64,000 nt of DNA, from positions 33,922-97,921 of the forward strand of contig OMYP01000004.1 of the NCBI GenBank assembly GCA_900315345.1. Direction: 5' to 3'. The position numbers were made by a program, and so were the translations under genes. Below are positions 3,022-63,137 of the stretch, piece by piece; within the stretch, counting starts at the first letter, position 1, and the number at the start of each line of letters is the position of its first letter. The notes under the pieces are model-generated. The model was not told the DNA's origin. It saw nothing but the letters and a program-made list of their open reading frames with translations, and searched no databases. This DNA comes from an uncultured Selenomonadales bacterium (GTDB lineage: Bacteria > Bacillota > Negativicutes > Acidaminococcales > Acidaminococcaceae).

Positions 3022-5109
3022 ATGATGAACGTCCCAAAATTATTTGGCAGTCTTACATTTAATGAACGGGTGATGAAGGACCGGCTTCCGGCTAAAACCT
3101 TTGCCACGTTTCGTAAGATGGTGGAGGAAGGACTGCCCCTGACAAGGGAACTGGCCGATATGATGGCCTACGCCATGAAGGACTGGGCACTGGAAAACGG
3201 TTGCACCCATTTTACCCACTGGTTCCAGCCTATGACAGGGATTACGGCGGAAAAGCACGACAGCTTCATTGCTCCGGCAGCGGACGGACGGGTCATCATG
3301 GATTTTTCCGGCAAAGATCTGATCCAGAGTGAACCGGATGCTTCCAGTTTTCCCTCCGGCGGCTTGCGGGCGACCTTCGAAGCCCGGGGATATACGGCAT
3401 GGGATCCCACCAGTTATGCCTTTATCAAAGATGATTGCCTTTATATTCCTACCGCTTTCTGCTCCTACACCGGGGATGTGCTGGATAAAAAGACGCCCCT
3501 TTTGCGTTCCATTACTGTATTAAGCGAAGCGGCGAAACGACTGCTGGCCATTCTTGGTATCCATACGGAAAAAGTGATCACCAATGTGGGACCGGAACAG
3601 GAATATTTCCTGGTAGATAAGGCCATGTGGGAGAAACGGAAGGATCTGGTATTTGCCGGCCGGACCCTGTTTGGCGCCAGACCTCCCAAAGGACAGGAGA
3701 TGGAAGACCATTATTTTGGCGCCATCAAGCCAAGAGTGAAAGCTTTTATGGCAGAACTGGATGAAGAACTGTGGAAGCTGGGAATCCCGGCCAAGACGGA
3801 GCATAACGAAGTGGCCCCTGCCCAGCACGAACTGGCTCCTGTTTATACATCGGTGAACCTGGCCTGCGATTATAACCAGCTGACCATGGAATTCATGAAA
3901 CGTATTGCACTAAAACACAATATGGTCTGCCTGCTGCACGAGAAACCTTTTGACGGTGTAAACGGAAGCGGAAAGCATAACAACTGGTCCTTATCCACGC
4001 TGGAAGGGAAAAACCTGCTGGATCCCGGAAAGGACGCATACCACAATAATCAGTTCCTGCTTTTCCTGGCGGCCATCATCAAAGGCGTGGATGAATATCA
4101 GGATGCGCTGCGGGGAACGGTGGCCAGCGCAGGCAACGATCACCGGTTAGGGGCAAACGAAGCGCCGCCTGCCATTGTCAGTATCTTCCTTGGGACAGAG
4201 CTGACCGGTGTGCTGGAAGCCATTGCTTCCGGACAGGAGTTCAAAGCAAACGGTCATATCCAGATGAAACTCAGCGGCAATACACTGGCTGCGGTCAGCA
4301 AGGATAACACGGACCGCAACCGGACTTCGCCGTTTGCTTTTACGGGCAATAAATTTGAATTCCGCATGGCCGGTTCCCAGGCCAGCCTGGCCTGTCCCAA
4401 CGCATACCTGAACACCATCGTGGCGGAAGAACTGGGGTGGGTGGCAGATAAGCTGGAAGGCACTGCACCGGAAGAACTGGATAAGGCCGTTAAGAATTTG
4501 GTAAAAGAAATCTATCTGGCCCACAAGCGCATCGTATTCAACGGCAACGGCTACACCGATGACTGGGTTGAGGAAGCGGCACAGCGCGGGTTGTATAATA
4601 ACAAATCCACGCCGGAAGCCCTGGCCTGCATGACCAGTAAGAAGAATATAGACCTGGTGGTGAAGCACGGCATCTTTACCAAAGCGGAAGTGCTGTCCCG
4701 TTGCGAGATCCAGTACGAGCTGTACAACAAGACGCTGAACATTGAAGCGCTGACCATGCTGGATATGCTTCATAAAGATCTGTTGCCTGCTGCACAGAAG
4801 TATCTGAAAGACCTGTCTGTAACTGCAGTAAATGAAAAAGAGCTGGGACTGAAACCGGATGTGGCATTTTTGAAAAAGCTGCAGGAAGCCACGGCGGCTA
4901 TGTATAAAGACGGCGAAACCCTGGCGAAAGAACTGGTCAATGCGGAAGGCATCGAAGACCAGAAGAAGGCCAGCGCAGCGTATCATAACAAAGTACTGTC
5001 TGCCATGGAGGCGCTGCGGGCAAGCGGCGACGCGGTAGAGGCCATGCTTGGCAAGGAATATCTGCCCTATCCTACATATGGGGAATTGCTGTTCGGTATC
5101 AACAGCTGA
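3022..5109 (+). CDS. glnN: Glutamine synthetase type III
   Basis: 695 aa with GSIII motifs THFTHWFQPMTG, EPDASSFPSGGLR, HEKPFDGVNGSGKHNNWS, NDHRLGANEAPP and DRNRTSPFAFTGNKFEFR. Confidence 0.95.
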   Translation: MMNVPKLFGSLTFNERVMKDRLPAKTFATFRKMVEEGLPLTRELADMMAYAMKDWALENGCTHFTHWFQPMTGITAEKHDSFIAPAADGRVIMDFSGKDLIQSEPDASSFPSGGLRATFEARGYTAWDPTSYAFIKDDCLYIPTAFCSYTGDVLDKKTPLLRSITVLSEAAKRLLAILGIHTEKVITNVGPEQEYFLVDKAMWEKRKDLVFAGRTLFGARPPKGQEMEDHYFGAIKPRVKAFMAELDEELWKLGIPAKTEHNEVAPAQHELAPVYTSVNLACDYNQLTMEFMKRIALKHNMVCLLHEKPFDGVNGSGKHNNWSLSTLEGKNLLDPGKDAYHNNQFLLFLAAIIKGVDEYQDALRGTVASAGNDHRLGANEAPPAIVSIFLGTELTGVLEAIASGQEFKANGHIQMKLSGNTLAAVSKDNTDRNRTSPFAFTGNKFEFRMAGSQASLACPNAYLNTIVAEELGWVADKLEGTAPEELDKAVKNLVKEIYLAHKRIVFNGNGYTDDWVEEAAQRGLYNNKSTPEALACMTSKKNIDLVVKHGIFTKAEVLSRCEIQYELYNKTLNIEALTMLDMLHKDLLPAAQKYLKDLSVTAVNEKELGLKPDVAFLKKLQEATAAMYKDGETLAKELVNAEGIEDQKKASAAYHNKVLSAMEALRASGDAVEAMLGKEYLPYPTYGELLFGINS

Positions 5110-5491: not shown

Positions 5492-8400
5492 TTATTTTGC
5501 GTCAATCGTTGAAATCCCCATGGTCACTTCTTCCAGTACATCCAGCAGCATCCGCACTGTGTCAAGGGAAGTGAGCATCACTGCGTTATTCTGTGCAGCG
5601 ACCTGCCGGATGGCAACGCCGTCCCCATAGTGTATGCCGGAAAGGATGGCCCGGGTATTGATGACATAACTGACGTACCCTGCACGTATCGAATCCAGAA
5701 TTTCCTGGCTTCCTTCGCTTGGCTTATGACGTATCCGGGTACGGATGCCATGCTGTTTCAGTACTTCCCCTGTTAAAGTAGTGGCTTCGATGTTGAATCC
5801 CATATTGTAGAAACGGCGGATCAGCGGCACTGTCTCTTCTTTATCTTCATCGGCCACGCTGACTACGACGGTGCCGTAGTTTTTCAGTGTCAGGCCGGAG
5901 GCGATCAGCGCTTTGTATGCGGCCCGGTGCAGTTTATCATCGTAGCCGATGGCTTCCCCGGTGGATTTCATTTCCGGTGAAAGATAGGCATCCATACCCC
6001 GGAGCTTGGAGAAGGAAAAGGCGGGAACTTTGACATAATATCGCGTTTTCTCTTTGGGGTACCGTTCCGTGATCCCCTGTTCCCGCAGGGAGACCCCAAG
6101 GATAGCCAACGTGCCCATATCGGCCAGGCTGTAACCTGTAGCTTTTGACAAAAAGGGAACCGTGCGGGAGGAACGGGGATTAACTTCGATGACATAGACC
6201 TGGTTATTTGTGTCCACGATATACTGGACGTTGAACAATCCGATAATACCGATGCCCAGTCCCAGTTTTTCCGTATAATCCAGTATCGTTTCCTTCACGT
6301 TTTCGGAAAGGCTGTAGGATGGATATACGCTGATAGAGTCGCCGGAATGGACACCGGTCCGTTCCACCAGTTCCATGATGCCGGGGACGAAGACATGTTC
6401 TCCGTCGCAGACCGCATCTACTTCTACTTCTTTGCCCCGGATATATTTATCTACAAGCACGGGTTTGTCTTCATCTACTTCTACTGCGGTTTTCAGATAG
6501 TCCCCCATATCCTTTTCTTTTCCCACAATCTGCATAGCCCGGCCGCCCAGGACAAAGCTGGGGCGTACAAGAACCGGAAATCCGATCTGGCGGGCTGCTT
6601 CCAGCCCTGCTTCAATGGTCGTGACGGCCTGCCCCGGAGGCTGGGGGATGCCCAGTGAAAGCAGAAGTTTTTCGAAGGAGTCCCGGTTTTCTGCACGGTC
6701 TATGGCATCGCAGTCTGTGCCGATGATCTTTACGCCCCGTTCACGCAGTGGTTCGGCCAGATTGATGGCTGTCTGTCCGCCCAGGGTAGCAATGACGCCG
6801 TCGGGCTTTTCCATCTCGATGATATTCATTACATCTTCCGGGCAGAGAGGCTCGAAGTACAGTTTGTCGGAACAGGTATAGTCGGTGGAAACGGTTTCCG
6901 GGTTATTGTTGATGATGATGGCTTCATAACCCGCTTTTTGGATGGTCCGGACCGCGTGGACGGTGGAATAGTCGAATTCAACGCCCTGCCCGATACGGAT
7001 GGGGCCGGCTCCCAGCACGACAATTTTTTTCCGTGAAGAAATACGGGATTCATTCTCTTCTTCGTATGTAGAATAAAAGTAGGGGATGTAACTTTCAAAT
7101 TCCGAGGCACAGGTATCGATCATTTTATAAACCGGTGTGATTCCGTTACGGCAGCGCAGTTCATAAATGTTCCGTTCCGATCTGTTCCACAGCAACGCGA
7201 TTTCTTTGTCGGAAAAGCCTGTTCTCTTTGCGCTGTGCAATACTTGCAGATCATCCGGATGGCTGCGGATTTCGGTCTCCAACGCGACGATATTACGAAT
7301 TTTCCGCAGGAAGAACCGGTCGATTGCCGTCTGGCCGGCAATGGTGTCCTCATTACAGCCCAGGCGGAACAGTTGCGCGATAGCATAGATCCGGTCGTCG
7401 GTCCCGATGCGTATGTAGTTGAGCAAGTCTTGTTCCGGTACAGCGTCAAATTTCGGCAAATGGATGTGAAAAGTGCCAATCTCCAAAGAGCGGATGCCTT
7501 TCAGCAGGCTTTCCTCAAAGGTCCGGCCAATGCTCATCACTTCCCCGGTAGCTTTCATCTGGGTGGAAAGGGAGTTATTTGCGTCTGAGAATTTATCGAA
7601 GGGGAAACGGGGCAGTTTTGTTACCACGTAATCCAGCGCCGGCTCAAAAGAGGCCGGGGTATTGGCAATCTGAATCTCGTCCAGGGTCATGCCGATGCCG
7701 ATTTTGGCGGAGACGCGGGCAATGGGATAGCCGCTTGCCTTGGATGCAAGGGCGGAGGAACGGGAGACCCGGGGATTTACTTCGATGAGATAATACTGGA
7801 AAGAGTTTGGGTCCAGTGCAAACTGTACGTTGCACCCGCCTTCGATCTTCAGTGCCCGGATAATTTTCAGGGCACTGTCCCGCAGCATATGATATTCCTT
7901 GTTGGTCAGGGTCTGGGAAGGGCAGACTACAATGGAGTCGCCAGTGTGGATGCCAACGGGATCCAGGTTTTCCATATTGCATATGGTAATGGCTGTATCA
8001 TTCCGGTCCCGCATCACTTCGTATTCGATTTCCTTAAAGCCCCGGATGCTTTTTTCAATCAGTACTTCCCGGACGGGGGAGAGGGAAAGGGCATGTTTCA
8101 TCAGAGGCAGGAATTCCGCCTCGTTTTCCGCAAAACCGCCGCCGGTTCCCCCCAGGGTGAAAGCCGGACGTAATACCACAGGGTAGCCGATCTTTTCAAC
8201 GACCTTCAGTCCCTCTTCAAGGGAACTGGCGATGTCAGAAGGCAGCACCGGTTCATTAAGTTTAGTACACAGTTCCTTGAAGAGTTCCCGGTCTTCCGCC
8301 TGTTCGATGGAATGGCTGTCGGTACCCAGCAGTTCCACATGGCACTCAGCCAGTATACCTTTCTTCTCCAGCTGCATGGCAAGGTTCAGACCGGTCTGTC

Positions 8401-18676: not shown

Positions 18677-18701
18677 TAGTCACAAGTTAATATTTTTATT
18701 T

Positions 18702-19028
18702 GGCTGTGAAGAGAAGAGTACGCAGAGGAAAATGCCACAGAGAGCTTTCGGTTTGGTGCAAGAAAGCGCAGGGAACTTTGCCGAAGATGGCCTTGGAGCC
18801 GGCTGGTCGAAGTAATTAAGACCGCCCGGGCGCACCCGTTACAGTGCTGGGGTATTCAAGGAGAAGTTCCCGCGTGCCCGAGAAGCTAATCTGATAAATT
18901 TATTTTTGCTGCTCGCGGTATCAGGGGAAAGAACCCGCGTACCCGAGGAGGCCGGACGTGTGAGCGTCCGGTGAATATGGGTGGTAACACGATGCCTTCG
19001 TCCCATTTGGGGCGGAGGCGTTTTTTAT
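18702..19028 (+). ncRNA. T-box riboswitch, Met-specific
   Basis: AG box (agagag), GGTGNRA motif (ggtgcaa), specifier codon ATG at 18787-18789, T-box aatatgggTGGTaacacg at 18974-18991, terminator gccttcgtccc...ggggcggaggcgtttttt. Sits upstream of metA. Confidence 0.9.
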
Positions 19029-19130
19029 TTTTGTTCTCTTTCACTTACGGAAGCGAAAAATAAAATGTTACACGTTGTCGTCTTCAAATACTTTGACCAT
19101 CACTTCACCAGCCGCAAGGAGGAAAAAGTT

Positions 19131-20054
19131 ATGCCGGTAAAAATCACAAACCAGTTGTCTGCAGTAGAAAATCTGCTGCGGGAAGGAATCATTGCCATTA
19201 CGGAGGAACGGGCGGTGACACAGGATATCCGTCCCCTGAAGATTCTGATCCTGAACCTGATGCCCCTGAAAAAACCGACAGAGCTGCAGTTGCTGCGTCT
19301 GTTGGGCAACAACCCCCTGCAGGTGGAAGTGGATTTTGCCCGGACGGTGACCCGGGAGACGACCCACACGGATAATTCCTATTTGGACAAGGCCTATCTG
19401 GAATTCGCGGACATAAAAGACCGTTATTACGACGGCTTCATCATTACCGGGGCGCCGGTGGAATGTCTGGAATTTGAAGAGGTGGAGTACTGGCCGGAGC
19501 TGGTGGATTATATCCGCTGGTCCCAGGATCATGTTTTCTCCGTTTTGTCCTTCTGCTGGAGCGCCCAGGCCGTGCTGTATTACTACTACGGCATTCAGAA
19601 GCATACGCTGCCACGAAAATTTTTCGGCATTTACAGTTACGGTCTGACAGTGAAGCACCATCCGCTGCTGCGGGGCTTTGACGACCGGTATTTCATTCCT
19701 CAGTCACGGCATACGGATATCGACCACCAGGCCGTGGACGCCGAACCGGATCTGAAGATACTGTCCCGTTCCGTGGAGCGGGGCATCAATATCTGCTGTA
19801 CGGAAGATATGCGGCGCATTTTTGTACTGGGGCATTTCGAGTATGACAGGGAAACCCTGGCCACGGAATACATTCGGGACAAAAAGAAGGGTATGGATCC
19901 GGACCTGCCGGAATACTACTATCCGGATAATGACAGCACGGAGCAGCCTGTTTTTAAGTGGTGCAGTTACGCCCACCTGTTTTACAACAACTGGCTGAAC
20001 ATGGTATATCAGGAAACACCCTATGATTTGACAACGCTGAAGAAAAGGGAATGA
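19131..20054 (+). CDS. metA: Homoserine O-acyltransferase (MetA/HTS family), probably the acetyltransferase type
   Basis: QDIRPLKILILNLMP, DGFIITGAPVE (Glu at the specificity position), FCWSAQA, PQSRH and GHFEY. Confidence 0.93.
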   Translation: MPVKITNQLSAVENLLREGIIAITEERAVTQDIRPLKILILNLMPLKKPTELQLLRLLGNNPLQVEVDFARTVTRETTHTDNSYLDKAYLEFADIKDRYYDGFIITGAPVECLEFEEVEYWPELVDYIRWSQDHVFSVLSFCWSAQAVLYYYYGIQKHTLPRKFFGIYSYGLTVKHHPLLRGFDDRYFIPQSRHTDIDHQAVDAEPDLKILSRSVERGINICCTEDMRRIFVLGHFEYDRETLATEYIRDKKKGMDPDLPEYYYPDNDSTEQPVFKWCSYAHLFYNNWLNMVYQETPYDLTTLKKRE

Positions 20055-20229: not shown

Positions 20230-21516
20230 ATGAGTACTTACAAATTTGAAACCTTACAGTTACACGTTGGACAGGAACAGGCAGACCCGGCGACGGACTC
20301 CAGGGCGGTGCCTATTTACCAGACCACTTCCTATGTGTTCCACAACAGCCAGCACGCGGCGGACCGGTTCGGTCTGAAGGATGCCGGAAATATTTACGGA
20401 CGTCTCACCAATTCCACCCAGGACGTGCTGGAAAAACGGCTGGCGGCTCTGGAAGGGGGCAGCGCGGCGCTGGCTCTGGCCTCCGGCGCGGCGGCGGTGA
20501 CCTACGCCGTGCAGGCGCTGGCAGCTAATGGCGGTCACATCGTGGCCCAGAAGACTATCTATGGCGGCAGCTTCAACCTGTTGGAACATACGCTGCCTGC
20601 TTACGGCATCAACACTACTTTTGTGGATGCCCATAACCTGGATGAAATTGAAAATGCAATTCAGGAAAACACACGGGCCATTTATCTGGAAACCCTGGGC
20701 AATCCCAACAGCGACATCCCCGATATCGATGCGGTGGCGGAAATTGCACATAAACACGGCCTGCCTCTGGTCATCGACAACACCTTCGGCACGCCGTACC
20801 TGATCCGTCCCATCGAACACGGCGCGGACGTAGTGATCCATTCAGCAACAAAATTTATCGGCGGACATGGTACCACATTAGGTGGCATCATCGTGGACGG
20901 CGGGAAGTTCGACTGGAAGAAGAGCGGTAAGTTCCCCAACATCGCAGACCCGAACCCCAGTTATCACGGCGTATCTTTCTATGACGCGGTAGGCCCCGCT
21001 GCCTTCGTGACATACATCCGCGCTATCCTGTTGCGTGATACCGGCGCCTGCATCTCTCCCTTCAACGCTTTCCTGCTGCTGCAGGGTGTGGAAACGTTAT
21101 CGCTGCGGCTGGAACGCCATGCGGAAAATACGAAGAAGGTGGTGGAATATTTAAGCGCCCACCCGTTGGTGGAAAGCGTAAGCCATCCGTCTTTACCCGG
21201 ACATCCGGACCATGCGCTGTATGAGAAATACTTCCCTAATGGCGGCGCCTCTATCTTCACTTTTGAAATCAAAGGCGGCCAGGAAGCGGCCTGGAAGTTT
21301 ATTGACAGCCTGAAGATATTCTCCCTGCTGGCCAACGTGGCTGACGTGAAGAGCCTGGTGATCCATCCGGCTTCTACCACCCATTCCCAGCTGACGGAAG
21401 CGGAACTGAAAGACCAGGGCATATCGCCCAGCACCATCCGCCTTTCCATCGGCACGGAGCATATTGATGACATTATTGCGGATCTGGAAAACGGGTTTGC
21501 GGCGATAAGAAAATAA
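20230..21516 (+). CDS. metY: O-acetylhomoserine sulfhydrylase
   Basis: AVPIYQTTSY, GNIYGRLTN, HSATKFIGGHG and LANVADVKSLVIHPASTTHSQL. Confidence 0.95.
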   Translation: MSTYKFETLQLHVGQEQADPATDSRAVPIYQTTSYVFHNSQHAADRFGLKDAGNIYGRLTNSTQDVLEKRLAALEGGSAALALASGAAAVTYAVQALAANGGHIVAQKTIYGGSFNLLEHTLPAYGINTTFVDAHNLDEIENAIQENTRAIYLETLGNPNSDIPDIDAVAEIAHKHGLPLVIDNTFGTPYLIRPIEHGADVVIHSATKFIGGHGTTLGGIIVDGGKFDWKKSGKFPNIADPNPSYHGVSFYDAVGPAAFVTYIRAILLRDTGACISPFNAFLLLQGVETLSLRLERHAENTKKVVEYLSAHPLVESVSHPSLPGHPDHALYEKYFPNGGASIFTFEIKGGQEAAWKFIDSLKIFSLLANVADVKSLVIHPASTTHSQLTEAELKDQGISPSTIRLSIGTEHIDDIIADLENGFAAIRK

Positions 21517-21650: not shown

Positions 21651-22583
21651 ATGGCAAATATTTACAAGGGTACCTTAGGACTGATCGGCAACACACCGTT
21701 AGTTGAAGTTGTTAACATTGAAAAAGAGTTAGGTCTGGAAGCTACAATTTTGGTTAAGCTGGAGTATTTTAACCCGGCAGGCAGCGTGAAGGACCGCATC
21801 GCCAAGGCCATGATCGAAGATGCGGAAGCGAAAGGACAGCTGAAACCCGGTTCTGTTATCATCGAACCCACTTCCGGCAATACTGGCATCGGCCTGGCTG
21901 CCATCGCAGCGGCTAAAGGCTATCGCATTATCCTCACCATGCCGGAGACCATGAGCGTGGAACGCCGCAACATTTTGAAAGCCTACGGTGCGGAAATCGT
22001 GCTGACGGAAGGGGTGAAGGGCATGAAGGGCGCCATCGCCAAGGCTGACGAGTTGGCGAAGGAAATTCCCAACAGCTTTATTCCCGGCCAGTTTGTGAAC
22101 CCGGCCAACCCGGCTGTCCATAAAGCCACTACCGGCCCGGAGATCTGGAAGGACACTGACGGGAAAGTAGACATCTTTATCGCCGGCGTAGGAACCGGCG
22201 GTACCGTAACGGGCACTGGCGAGTATCTGAAAGAACAGAATCCCAATGTGAAAGTGGTGGCTCTGGAACCGGCAGATTCCCCGGTATTATCCGAAGGCAG
22301 GGCAGGCGCCCATAAGATCCAGGGCATCGGCGCAGGCTTTGTACCGGACGTGCTGAACACAAAACTGTATGATGAGGTATTCAAAGCAGAAAGCGCGGAC
22401 GCCTTTGCGGCGGCAAAACTGCTGGCGAAAAAAGAAGGTATCTCCGTAGGGATTTCCTCCGGCGCCGCGCTCCACGGGGCTATTGAACTGGCAAAACGTC
22501 CGGAGAACAAAGGAAAGATCATCGTAGCCCTGCTGCCCGACAGCGGCGACCGTTATTATTCTACGCCGTTGTTCACAGAGTAA
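21651..22583 (+). CDS. cysK: Cysteine synthase A
   Basis: [16 protein letters not shown] (PLP lysine), [17 protein letters not shown] and [10 protein letters not shown]. Confidence 0.97.
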
Positions 22584-22638: not shown

Positions 22639-22715
22639 GGCGGCGTAGCCAAGTGTTTAAGGCAATAGTCCGCAAGACTATCATTCCCTGTGTTCAAATC
22701 CGGGCGCCGCCTCCA
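22639..22715 (+). tRNA. Atypical tRNA-Cys (anticodon GCA), non-canonical or pseudo-tRNA
   Basis: Acceptor stem GGCGGCG/CGCCGCC with U73 and CCA. D stem GCC/GGC. Anticodon stem ATAGT/ACTAT with loop CCGCAAG. T loop TTCAAAT. Deviations: C33, G38, no GG in the D loop, bulged T stem. Confidence 0.85.
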
Positions 22716-22770: not shown

Positions 22771-23388
22771 ATGAAAATCCCGTTGCGATACCAGATTTCT
22801 GAATACGATTGCGGGCCTACTTCGCTTTTAAATGCGATGAGCTTTCTGTTTCAGCGGGAGGAAATCTCTCCGGAACTGATTCGCAACATCATGCTGTATT
22901 CCCTGGATAGCTATGGTAGCGGTGGTGTTTTGGGAAAGAGCGGCACCTCCCGTATGGCTATGGCGTTTCTTAGCAACTGGCTGGATGGGGCAGGCAAGAC
23001 TGGAATCCTTCCCATTACAAGCAGGCATCTTTCCGGGAAGGAAGTCTGGCTTGGAAATCAAAGCCTGATTGTGGAAGCTCTTCACAGGAATGGTGCGGCT
23101 GTAGTGCGGCTGCTTTTTGAAGGCGAGCATTATGTACTCCTTACCGGTGAAAAGGAGGGATACGTTTTCCTGTTTGATCCTTATTATCTGCCGGATGGTC
23201 CGTTGTCAGAAGAGGTCGACAGTACGTTAGACCAGCATTTTCGTTATAACCGCATCGTTCCGTTTTCCTGCTTCAACCGGGAGGAAGGGCTGTACGCTCT
23301 GGGCCGCGAAGAAGACCGGGAAGCCGTGCTGATTTTTAATCAGCACACCATGCTTACGCCAGAAAAAAATATTGAGTATTTTATTTAA
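22771..23388 (+). CDS. Peptidase C39-like (papain-fold) protein without a transporter domain
   Basis: Q..EYDCGPTS (Cys), EHYVLL (His) and FDPY (Asp) form a putative catalytic triad. Confidence 0.75.
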   Translation: MKIPLRYQISEYDCGPTSLLNAMSFLFQREEISPELIRNIMLYSLDSYGSGGVLGKSGTSRMAMAFLSNWLDGAGKTGILPITSRHLSGKEVWLGNQSLIVEALHRNGAAVVRLLFEGEHYVLLTGEKEGYVFLFDPYYLPDGPLSEEVDSTLDQHFRYNRIVPFSCFNREEGLYALGREEDREAVLIFNQHTMLTPEKNIEYFI

Positions 23389-23392
23389 AAAC

Positions 23393-24460
23393 ATGAGAAA
23401 AATTATTGTGGGCATGTCCGGCGGTGTTGACAGCGCGGTAACCGCTTATCTGCTGAAAGCCGCCGGATTTGACGTTACGGGGATCACGCTGCGCACCTGG
23501 TCGGGCGCAGACGGGGAGGAGAGCCGTTGCTGTGAAATTAGCGACGCCATGCAGGTGGCGCAGCAGATAGGAATTCCGTATTATGTGCAAAACTGCGTGG
23601 CCTGCTTCCGGAAAAATGTGGTAAAACCTTTCACTTCGGCCTATCTGCAGGGCAGGACGCCCAATCCCTGTGTGGACTGCAACCGCTTTGTCAAATGGGA
23701 GCAGATGATTCTGGCAGCGGAACGCATGCGGGCGGATTATGTAGCAACAGGGCACTATGCTTCTGTGGTCCGCCTGCCTAATGGGCGGTTTACGGTACGG
23801 CAGGCTGCCTTCAGTAACAAGGACCAGACCTACATGCTGTACCGCCTGACGCAGGAACAGCTGGCCCGTACCTTGATACCCCTGGGCAGATTGAGCAAAG
23901 AAGAAGTGCGGCAGATAGCCGAGAAAGCAGGACTGCCTGTGGCGCATAAAAAAGATTCCCAGGAGATATGTTTTGTGGCCCGGGGAGGCTATGCAGAGTA
24001 TATTGCCAATGAGACGGATACGGAAATCCTGCCGGGAAATTTTGTGGATGAACAGGGCAGGGTGATCGGACGGCACAAAGGCATCATCCATTATACGGTA
24101 GGGCAGCGAAAAGGACTGGGTCTTGCACTGGGTCATCCCGCTTACGTGAAAGCGGTGGATGCGGCAAAAAATGAAGTTGTAATCGGGGACGAACAGTCTC
24201 TGTATTGCCGTGAAATACTATGCGATGAAGTGAATTTTATGAGTGTTCCTGATATCGGACCAAAGGAAAAACTGCGGGCGACTGTAAAGATCCGCTATCA
24301 CCATCAGGGGGAAGCCGCCATCATATGCCGGGATGCAGCGGAGACCGTCCGTGTTATTTTTGATAAACCGGTAAAAGCCGCGACCCCGGGACAGTCTGCC
24401 GTATTTTATGATGAAAATAACTGTGTTATAGGCGGCGGGAAGATTGAGGCGGTGATATAA
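23393..24460 (+). CDS. mnmA: tRNA-specific 2-thiouridylase
   Basis: GMSGGVDS PP-loop, CC, TPNPCVDCNR, ATGHYA, KDQTYML, DSQEICF, HYTVGQRKGLG and TPGQSAVFY. Confidence 0.93.
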   Translation: MRKIIVGMSGGVDSAVTAYLLKAAGFDVTGITLRTWSGADGEESRCCEISDAMQVAQQIGIPYYVQNCVACFRKNVVKPFTSAYLQGRTPNPCVDCNRFVKWEQMILAAERMRADYVATGHYASVVRLPNGRFTVRQAAFSNKDQTYMLYRLTQEQLARTLIPLGRLSKEEVRQIAEKAGLPVAHKKDSQEICFVARGGYAEYIANETDTEILPGNFVDEQGRVIGRHKGIIHYTVGQRKGLGLALGHPAYVKAVDAAKNEVVIGDEQSLYCREILCDEVNFMSVPDIGPKEKLRATVKIRYHHQGEAAIICRDAAETVRVIFDKPVKAATPGQSAVFYDENNCVIGGGKIEAVI

Positions 24461-62906: not shown

Positions 62907-62983
62907 GGCCCGGTGGTTCAGTTGGTTAGAATGCCGCCCTGTCACGGCGGAGGTCACGAGTTCGAGTCTCGTCCGGGTCGCCA
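62907..62983 (+). tRNA. tRNA-Asp (GTC)
   Basis: Canonical cloverleaf, anticodon arm ccgcc-ctGTCac-ggcgg, CCA end. Confidence 0.96.
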
Positions 62984-62984
62984 T

Positions 62985-63060
62985 GCGGAAATAGCTCAGT
63001 TGGTAGAGCACAACCTTGCCAAGGTTGGGGTCGCGAGTTCGAGTCTCGTTTTCCGCTCCA
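62985..63060 (+). tRNA. tRNA-Gly (GCC)
   Basis: Anticodon arm caacc-ttGCCaa-ggttg, CCA end. Confidence 0.96.
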
Positions 63061-63061
63061 C

Positions 63062-63137
<76 letters not shown>

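Follow-up and report, generated by a model that had tools for sequence, protein, structure and literature searches.

What might be the use of a tRNA gene that keeps the features read by its synthetase and departs from its canonical relatives in parts that are read during translation? The question is raised by a 77-nt tRNA-Cys(GCA)-like RNA gene, hereafter the element, which lies immediately behind a cysK gene in a stretch of 64,000 nucleotides (the window) from contig OMYP01000004.1 of an uncultured Selenomonadales bacterium. Judged by its sequence, the element clearly appears to be a paralogue derived from an ordinary Firmicute-type tRNA-Cys. The explanation towards which we lean, with some reserve, is that it is a chargeable cysteine tRNA, excluded from routine elongation and made together with a sulfur operon, and that its role would be either to report on or regulate charging or to donate cysteine.

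Sequence, conservation and structure of the element

Read as DNA on the forward strand (22639-22715), the element is GGCGGCG-TA-GCCA-AGTGTTTA-AGGC-A-ATAGT-CCGCAAG-ACTAT-CATTC-CCTG(T)G-TTCAAAT-CCGGG-CGCCGCC-T-CCA, and as RNA it is GGCGGCG-UA-GCCA-AGUGUUUA-AGGC-A-AUAGU-CCGCAAG-ACUAU-CAUUC-CCUG(U)G-UUCAAAU-CCGGG-CGCCGCC-U-CCA. Each structural feature listed in an initial annotation of the locus (the acceptor stem, U73, CCA, the GCA anticodon, C33, G38, the GG-less D loop and the bulged T-stem U) is present, and the D stem consists of 3 bp plus A13/A22. Folding of the single sequence gave a cloverleaf of -25.2 kcal/mol (z = -2.2); since this energy is only mildly unusual, the case for the element rests on comparative evidence. 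The identity elements of bacterial CysRS are U73, the G2-C71 and C3-G70 pairs and the GCA anticodon (PMC9976931), and the set is complete in the element, including G34-C35-A36. What distinguishes a canonical elongator tRNA-Cys is missing, both the combination of U33 with a non-Watson-Crick 32/38 in a 7-nt loop and that of G18G19 with a regular 5-bp T stem.

The element scored 42.7 bits against the Rfam tRNA model (RF00005), for which the curated gathering score is 29, and so passed the tRNA threshold, a match well above chance level, with an E-value of 3.8e-8 locally and 1e-5 for the whole window. Despite a score 13 bits over threshold, it was skipped by Rfam's default fast-filter run and was found when laxer filters were used; its score was no obstacle, and the miss came from the speed filters. 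ARAGORN made no call at 22639-22715. With the same Rfam model the three ordinary tRNAs of the window scored 66-70 bits; canonical tRNA-Asp(GTC), tRNA-Gly(GCC) and tRNA-Trp(CCA) form a tight cluster at 62907-63137, with single-nt spacers.

Searches with nhmmer recovered the element in a second locus, L011, at the matching position, and in Succiniclasticum ruminis (L015). In the three species 74 of 77 nt are identical, and the flanking DNA cannot be aligned. A G-to-A change at 22702, among the three differences, replaces the window's U51.G63 by U51-A63 in the relatives, which supports the bulged pairing register of the T stem. With the copies added by a metagenome scan, the set of close relatives that we call type A comprised 14 distinct sequences, from relatives of the rumen Succiniclasticum group belonging to several species. 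Columns of this set were invariant or nearly so except at positions 26-29 and 41-44, and C33, G38, the GG-less D loop and the bulged T-stem U occurred in 14 of 14 sequences. The positions that did vary form the anticodon stem, where two-sided changes at pairs 27:43, 28:42 and 29:41 were counted in 13 cells, a number that none of 500 shuffles matched, and slid controls collapsed. In 24 distinct loci, the conserved stretch extends exactly from G1 to the last A of CCA. When large rumen assemblies were compared with the element at an identity of at least 80%, with the loop unconstrained, one variant was listed, and it fell in the anticodon stem.

Since type A sequences share every unusual feature regardless of species and differ in a covarying anticodon stem, the comparison indicates that the GG-less D loop, the CCGCAAG loop and the bulged U are being preserved rather than decaying, and that the element is under strong purifying selection. 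The result bears directly on the alternative that the element is a tRNA pseudogene, either a decaying duplicate or the remnant of a mobile-element integration. The ARAGORN miss and the several departures from consensus would fit that alternative, as would the phage-integrase fragment that adjoins a related gene (type C, below), but the stems are intact, the unusual positions have not drifted across species as the anticodon stem covaried, conservation ends sharply at the mature termini, RNA contigs cover the element, and the same changes recur in independent lineages. In our judgement the comparison largely refutes the pseudogene, to which we would assign hardly any probability, and makes simple pseudogenisation very unlikely. 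The initial annotation had also considered that the substitutions might be private to one strain and free of covariation; neither is the case in type A.

In the relatives that could be tested, the element is not the only tRNA-Cys, a prospect that the initial annotation had raised. The bait for a second copy was a canonical Firmicute tRNA-Cys from prophage-flank contigs. In the assembly of the S. ruminis isolate DSM 9236 (2.7 Mb of contigs), one further contig matched this bait, without gaps over 75 nt and with four differences. The contig continues GGTTCAATTCCGGGTGTCGCCTCCA, then a tRNA-Leu, and its depth of 318 is at the single-copy level; the element lies on a 103-kb contig with a depth of 343. 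On two rumen contigs (L170 and L147), a canonical tRNA-Cys is located 1.2 and 6 kb downstream of the element, respectively, and scored 61-65 bits with the Rfam model, compared with 40-44 bits for the element, which is thus about 20 bits lower than the canonical copy. In S. ruminis, L147 and L170, then, the odd gene coexists with a proteogenic isoacceptor, as a non-proteogenic isoacceptor would. The earlier proposal that the loss of canonical features was selective, rather than random decay, is borne out in its comparative part by these data: the invariance, the covariation, the second tRNA-Cys and the RNA contigs.

In elongator tRNAs, U33 provides the U-turn, and Watson-Crick 32-38 pairs lower the affinity for the A site. 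Among 108 tRNA-Cys genes with the same backbone and the loop left free, U33 was found in 104, C33 in four and G38 in one. The exchange of U33 for C and of A38 for G makes G38 able to pair. In a nearest-neighbour model, the loop closed by C32-G38 had an energy of -3.9 kcal/mol, against -0.4 kcal/mol for the open 7-nt loop, and a pairing probability near 1; the alternative C33-G38 pair gave -1.5 kcal/mol. Canonical tRNA-Cys anticodon arms remained open in the folding model. Two candidate targets for a kissing interaction with the loop were rejected: CUUGCGG occurred at chance frequency in the window and had no sense-strand copy in the operon (18-25 kb), and a single CUUGCG just past the cysK stop is not conserved in relatives.

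Three surfaces of the molecule would thereby be remodelled. In the anticodon loop, the U-turn uridine is gone, and G38 would pair with C32 or, closing a GCAA (GNRA) tetraloop, with C33. The second surface would be the elbow, whose G19:C56 contact serves the ribosome, RNase P and T-box stem I alike, and where the element has no G19. The third would be the 12-bp acceptor/T-stem stack, which is read by EF-Tu and measured by processing enzymes, and which here would contain the bulged U. The features that CysRS is expected to read (U73, G2-C71, C3-G70, GCA, the A13/A22 core and an encoded CCA) are kept, and it can reasonably be inferred that the element is a poor elongator that retains them.

Sulfur-gene linkage and presence in RNA assemblies

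In the window, the element lies on the same strand as a series of sulfur genes, in the order T-box leader with terminator, metA, the O-acetylhomoserine sulfhydrylase gene (metY), cysK, element, an open reading frame (ORF) resembling C39 peptidases, mnmA and metQ (Table 1). In our own reading of the alignment, the T-box has the specifier AUG (Met) followed by a purine and the bulge UGGU, and is of the Met/A73 type; neither a Cys-type T-box nor a CysRS gene was found in the window. The T-box-headed arrangement also occurs in L159, with a T-box score of 84.9 bits, which is under Rfam's threshold. Sequencing runs that contain the window locus come from bovine and sheep gut metagenomes.

A cysK gene lies directly 5' of the element in the window, in L011 and L015, and in ten metagenome loci; in L015 it is represented by its C-terminus at the edge of the locus. 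The S. ruminis neighbourhood further includes genes for a solute-binding protein, a TetR-type regulator, a cysteine desulfurase, NifU and the C39-like protein. In the distant, high-GC subfamily type F, the tRNA gene sits between cysK (58% identical) and O-acetylhomoserine sulfhydrylase. Other type A variants have unrelated gene contexts, and some (L151:3676-4543; L248; L254) lie 3' of a barnase-like ribonuclease/barstar pair and 5' of a GNAT acetyltransferase. The linkage of the element to sulfur genes is therefore real and restricted to certain clades.

Rumen metatranscriptomes yielded assembled contigs that extend from the 3' end of cysK across the element and the C39-like gene into mnmA (22520 to beyond 23600), and in one metatranscriptome run several contigs of other species converge on the element from differing flanks. 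The possibility, also raised in the initial annotation, that the element is not expressed is thus countered by its representation in metatranscriptome assemblies, in which DNA may be included. In the window, no terminator-like site was found between cysK and the C39-like ORF or mnmA.

The position of the element allows a further alternative, namely that it acts in cis on the cysK operon mRNA as a tRNA-like signal for processing or stability, serving as RNase P/Z punctuation or as a protector of a 3' end, with no role as a free RNA. Consistent with this, the element follows the cysK stop by 27-55 nt and is co-transcribed with its flanking genes in the window. In S. ruminis it begins 27 nt after that stop, which leaves no room for a promoter, and its 3' end precedes a strong terminator (-22.9 kcal/mol, z = -4.4, then U6). 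The type D loci described below also fit, since RNase cleavage at the tRNA 3' end would free a nearly leaderless mRNA. However, in three loci (L169, L195 and L203) the gene stands alone, with a promoter-like site, TTTTCA-17-TATAAT, that ends 19 nt before G1 and a terminator of its own 11 nt after CCA, which suggests that the functional unit is a tRNA-sized RNA rather than part of the cysK mRNA. Members also occur in unrelated contexts, and U73, CCA and GCA, none of which a structural punctuation mark requires, are invariant. We consider a purely cis-acting role improbable.

Under the explanation that we prefer, a chargeable tRNA outside routine elongation, the element would be made as part of the Met-T-box operon, right after cysK, and its level would be expected to rise when the operon is induced. 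It would be cut out as a tRNA-sized RNA, could be charged with cysteine and would be largely kept from ribosomal elongation. In its charged form it might act in trans to report on or regulate cysteine charging, or might be a dedicated cysteine donor.

Table 1. Coordinates of the element, its parts and the neighbouring operon features in the window, and of tRNA-protein loci of type D on other contigs
Feature	Position	Strand	Basis
tRNA-Cys(GCA)-like RNA gene, 77 nt, type A of the CCGCAAG-loop class	22639-22715	+	Sequence; Rfam RF00005, 42.7 bits; conserved G1 to A76
Acceptor stem, 5' strand GGCGGCG, with G2 and C3 of the bacterial CysRS identity pairs	22639-22645	+	7/7 Watson-Crick pairs with 22705-22711; invariant in type A
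D loop AGTGTTTA, without G18G19	22652-22659	+	Sequence; AG[T/C]GTTTA throughout type A
Anticodon arm, 5-bp stem	22665-22681	+	Sole evolving part; compensatory changes
Anticodon loop CCGCAAG: C32, C33 (22671), anticodon GCA (22672-22674), A37, G38 (22676)	22670-22676	+	Sequence; invariant in relatives found without loop constraint
T arm CCTG(U)G-TTCAAAT-CCGGG, bulged U at 22691	22687-22704	+	Sequence; Rfam alignment
Acceptor stem, 3' strand (22705-22711), discriminator U73 (22712), encoded CCA (22713-22715)	22705-22715	+	Sequence; U73 in all listed class members
T-box leader (18697-19008) with terminator-like site (18991-19022), heads operon	18697-19022	+	Rfam RF00230, 95.5 bits
metA-type homoserine O-acyltransferase	19128-20054	+	Pfam PF04204
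O-acetylhomoserine sulfhydrylase	20230-21516	+	Pfam PF01053
cysK-type O-acetylserine sulfhydrylase (PALP)	21651-22583	+	Pfam PF00291, 1.1e-78; stop codon 55 nt 5' of element
Peptidase_C39_2-like ORF, 205 aa	22771-23388	+	Pfam
mnmA tRNA 2-thiouridylase	23372-24460	+	Pfam
Type D tRNA with ~325-aa protein gene	L168:3118-4169; L176:1442-2501; L210:6798-7822; L364:9928-10975; L365, L366, L369		

The closest named relatives of the 205-aa product of the ORF behind the element are in metagenome-assembled genomes of rumen Acidaminococcaceae (83% identity) and in S. ruminis DSM 9236 (71%). Its Peptidase_C39_2-like family (window 22771-23388; L015:4001-4621) is well conserved, with an invariant Cys14 in the motif EYDCGPT and His120, and is widespread in Selenomonadaceae, Lachnospiraceae and Oscillospiraceae. 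In S. ruminis the ORF lies between nifU and the region where the window has mnmA.

A wider class of tRNA-Cys genes with the CCGCAAG loop

Metagenome contigs were scanned for the Firmicute tRNA-Cys backbone combined with a CCGCAAG loop, which gave at least 120 matches, about ten of them due to chance. The others included at least 65 distinct CCGCAAG tRNA-Cys genes in about eight subfamilies, from rumen, human gut, wetland, sediment and other samples. Among the matches listed, U73 and a fully paired acceptor stem were found in 65 of 65 class members, the sequences of the stems being variable. The GG of the D loop was present in 95 of 100 canonical (U33) genes and in 39 of 59 class members among these matches, and a regular 5-bp T stem in 95 of 100 and 34 of 59, respectively. 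The GG is lost in types A, C and G and in some type D genes, and a bulge between pairs 52:62 and 53:61 characterizes types A, B and C; an apparent bulge in type H was re-parsed as a regular 5-bp stem with one U.G pair. Canonical and CCGCAAG genes occur on one contig in types A, C and H, with shared acceptor stems. Evidence for conservation of the loop that does not depend on the search pattern comes from L011, L015, the unconstrained search of rumen assemblies and the protein-anchored type D loci.

Types D to H are otherwise ordinary cloverleaves, which ARAGORN calls tRNA-Cys. In type F (L231, L239), two of four genes were called tRNA-Leu(CAA) by ARAGORN, with the anticodon shifted by one base, so that the loop confuses standard callers. 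Type B is an abundant human-gut subfamily (L207:6606-6682 and about 38 other contigs) with a normal D loop, the CCGCAAG loop and a bulged-U T stem, scoring 37.8 bits with Rfam; its location is 1.15 kb past tuf, ahead of an asparaginase gene, and ARAGORN labels it an ordinary tRNA-Cys. The type C gene (L144:6370-6446) has a bulged T stem, no GG and the T loop TGCAATT, shares its acceptor stem with a canonical tRNA-Cys 6.2 kb away, and adjoins the phage-integrase fragment mentioned above (6566-7012). On a phage-like contig of 188 kb (L103, IMGVR_UViG_3300044451_000175), a CCGCAAG tRNA-Cys (3463-3535) whose D loop has the normal GG and whose gene does not encode CCA is accompanied by 13 other tRNA genes within 9 kb.

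Type D is found in Patescibacteria (Paceibacterota, Nomurabacteria), which belong to the candidate phyla radiation (CPR). In 12 of 14 type D loci, and in four of five further distinct loci anchored on the protein, a conserved protein of about 325 aa begins 0-9 nt after the tRNA. Its ATG often overlaps the tRNA CCA, and the upstream genes differ among loci. With an overlap or a gap of at most 9 nt, 3' processing of the tRNA would leave a nearly leaderless mRNA. The loops of four protein-anchored tRNAs were UCGCAAG, CCGCAAG, CCGCAAG and CCGCAAG, and two of the four lack GG; the UCGCAAG relative has U32 and keeps C33 and G38. The protein gave weak matches to PF05141 only. Its AlphaFold model (pLDDT 84) matched the isonitrile synthases PIsnA and PvcA (E 1e-9 to 1e-6, TM 0.53-0.60), with weaker similarity to the catalytic domains of TyrRS/TrpRS and to cyclodipeptide synthases (CDPS). 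Neither the window nor the type A loci yielded a homologue of the protein.

The ordinary appearance of types D to H, together with their ARAGORN calls, would fit a different explanation, that the element is a translating tRNA-Cys isodecoder with a special property, such as a back-up resistant to anticodon-loop nucleases or a tRNA that does not depend on modification of A37 when sulfur or S-adenosylmethionine is scarce, induced with the sulfur operon. G38 removes the A36-A37-A38 motif used by MiaA. The decoding identity is kept (GCA, a 5-bp stem and a nominally 7-nt loop), co-expression with an operon induced by starvation fits, and the type D gene may be the sole tRNA-Cys in small CPR genomes. 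The phage-like array of L103, with its 13 further tRNAs, fits as well, and phage tRNAs with mutated anticodon loops have been proposed to escape host tRNases (PMC10264068). On the other hand, U33 is near universal in elongators (104 of the 108 comparable tRNA-Cys genes above), and type A also lacks G19 and has a bulged T stem, both invariant, which is unexpected for an efficient substrate of EF-Tu and the ribosome; the element's Rfam score, about 20 bits under that of the canonical copy on the same contig, also speaks against an isodecoder. We regard an isodecoder as unlikely, while giving it more weight than a cis-acting mRNA element.

Extended to the whole class, our explanation becomes more speculative. 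The C33/G38 tRNA-Cys genes might form a widespread, unrecognised class of chargeable, non-decoding tRNAs, represented in Firmicutes, Negativicutes, CPR bacteria and other lineages, in which pairing of position 38 with 33 or 32 would lock the anticodon. Such tRNAs could couple cysteine charging to cysK/metY/mnmA sulfur metabolism, or could feed enzymes such as the PvcA/TyrRS-fold protein of Patescibacteria. We offer this as a tentative idea, and doubt it more than we doubt the explanation given for the element itself.

Several observations weigh against our explanation of the element and its class. The 64-kb window holds no canonical tRNA-Cys, so coexistence in the element's own genome is extrapolated from relatives, and a cysK gene is found upstream in only about half of the type A loci. 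The sole T-box in the window is of the Met type and cannot pair with the element's U73, and the GG-less elbow would weaken docking to T-box stem I. No Fem-like transferase is linked to the type A element, and the sole candidate for a partner that turned up is the PvcA-fold protein beside type D. The RNA evidence consists of assembled contigs, which are silent on mature ends. In the class as a whole, loop conservation is partly the product of a search pattern in which the loop was fixed, and if types B and D are the sole tRNA-Cys of their genomes, C33 and G38 would be compatible with decoding.

Comparison with known systems

The element shares with canonical Firmicute tRNA-Cys(GCA) the backbone GGCGGC-R-TAGCCAAG...AAGGC, U73, CCA and the anticodon. 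The canonical gene has the anticodon loop CUGCAAA, where the element has CCGCAAG; its D loop is AGYGGUA, with GG, where the element has AGUGUUUA; and its T stem is a regular 5 bp instead of bulged. Canonical Firmicute tRNA-Cys scored 61-66 bits in Rfam, compared with 40-44 bits for genes of the element's type.

A minor second tRNA-Cys with U73, a GCA (or UCA) anticodon and a bulged A51a has been described as selC* (8/4) tRNA in anaerobic Firmicutes and others (PMC7609411, PMC5389517). In selC* tRNAs the acceptor stem measures 8 bp and the T stem 4 bp, the variable arm is long, and the D and anticodon arms are Sec-like; these tRNAs translate with SelB* (PMC7609411, PMC5389517). In contrast, the element has a 7-bp acceptor stem, a two-nt UA linker at 8-9, a 5-nt variable loop, a D stem of 3-4 bp and C33/G38, and only the T-stem bulge is held in common. 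An 8/4 reading of the element was rejected, since it needs a U8-G65 pair, leaves a one-nt linker and has no long variable arm. Phage tRNAs with mutated anticodon loops resemble the element in being isodecoders that differ from the host copy mainly in that loop (PMC10264068), and the L103 gene does lie in a phage-like array. Those tRNAs are, however, thought to translate and generally keep U33, whereas the element is chromosomal and linked to cysK, and has additional changes in the elbow and T stem.

Extra tRNAs with non-translational uses are known for few amino acids, examples being glycine in staphylococcal cell walls and, in Bacillus cereus, a Trp-like pseudo-tRNA, and full-text searches of open-access papers turned up neither a C33/G38 tRNA-Cys nor a tRNA linked to cysK. 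If our explanation holds, a conserved, cysteine-specific, non-translational tRNA in a sulfur operon, with relatives in many lineages, would point to a new route by which cysteinyl-tRNA is used or sensed, which matters for sulfur metabolism because cysteine is toxic and tightly regulated. Standard tools miss the class or label its members as ordinary tRNA-Cys, so that tRNA inventories of gut and rumen bacteria are distorted. Both genes, canonical and odd, are present in the cultured isolate S. ruminis DSM 9236, in which the case can be tested directly.

The initial annotation had drawn an analogy with the non-proteogenic (NP) tRNA-Gly species of staphylococci. NP1-3 of S. aureus and S. epidermidis are extra isoacceptors beside translating ones, keep their synthetase identity, and have an altered D/T-loop elbow and T-arm features that weaken use by EF-Tu and the ribosome (PMC7826273, PMC9976931). 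Type C resembles them further in having TGC in place of TTC in its T loop. The element, which was compared with them by sequence, differs in its amino acid, cysteine, and in its changes, C33/G38 and a T-stem bulge here as against base-pair substitutions at 49-65 and 51-63 there, and no Fem-type transferase or other acceptor pathway is linked to it. The analogy is therefore a reasonable likeness and does not extend to membership. The tRNA-Other of B. cereus is a tRNA-like small RNA outside translation, poorly charged and with a sense anticodon, for which there are indications of a part in stress phenotypes and in the control of a synthetase gene by a T-box (PMC3399842). It has a Trp anticodon, is present in some bacilli only and lies at the border of a genomic island, whereas the element has the full Cys identity set and is linked to cysK, and its class occurs in many lineages. 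Within the window there is no T-box whose specifier and UGGN bulge match the element, as a control circuit of the tRNA-Other type would have. By analogy, the element would appear to work most like the staphylococcal NP tRNA-Gly and the B. cereus pseudo-tRNA, while being a member of neither group.

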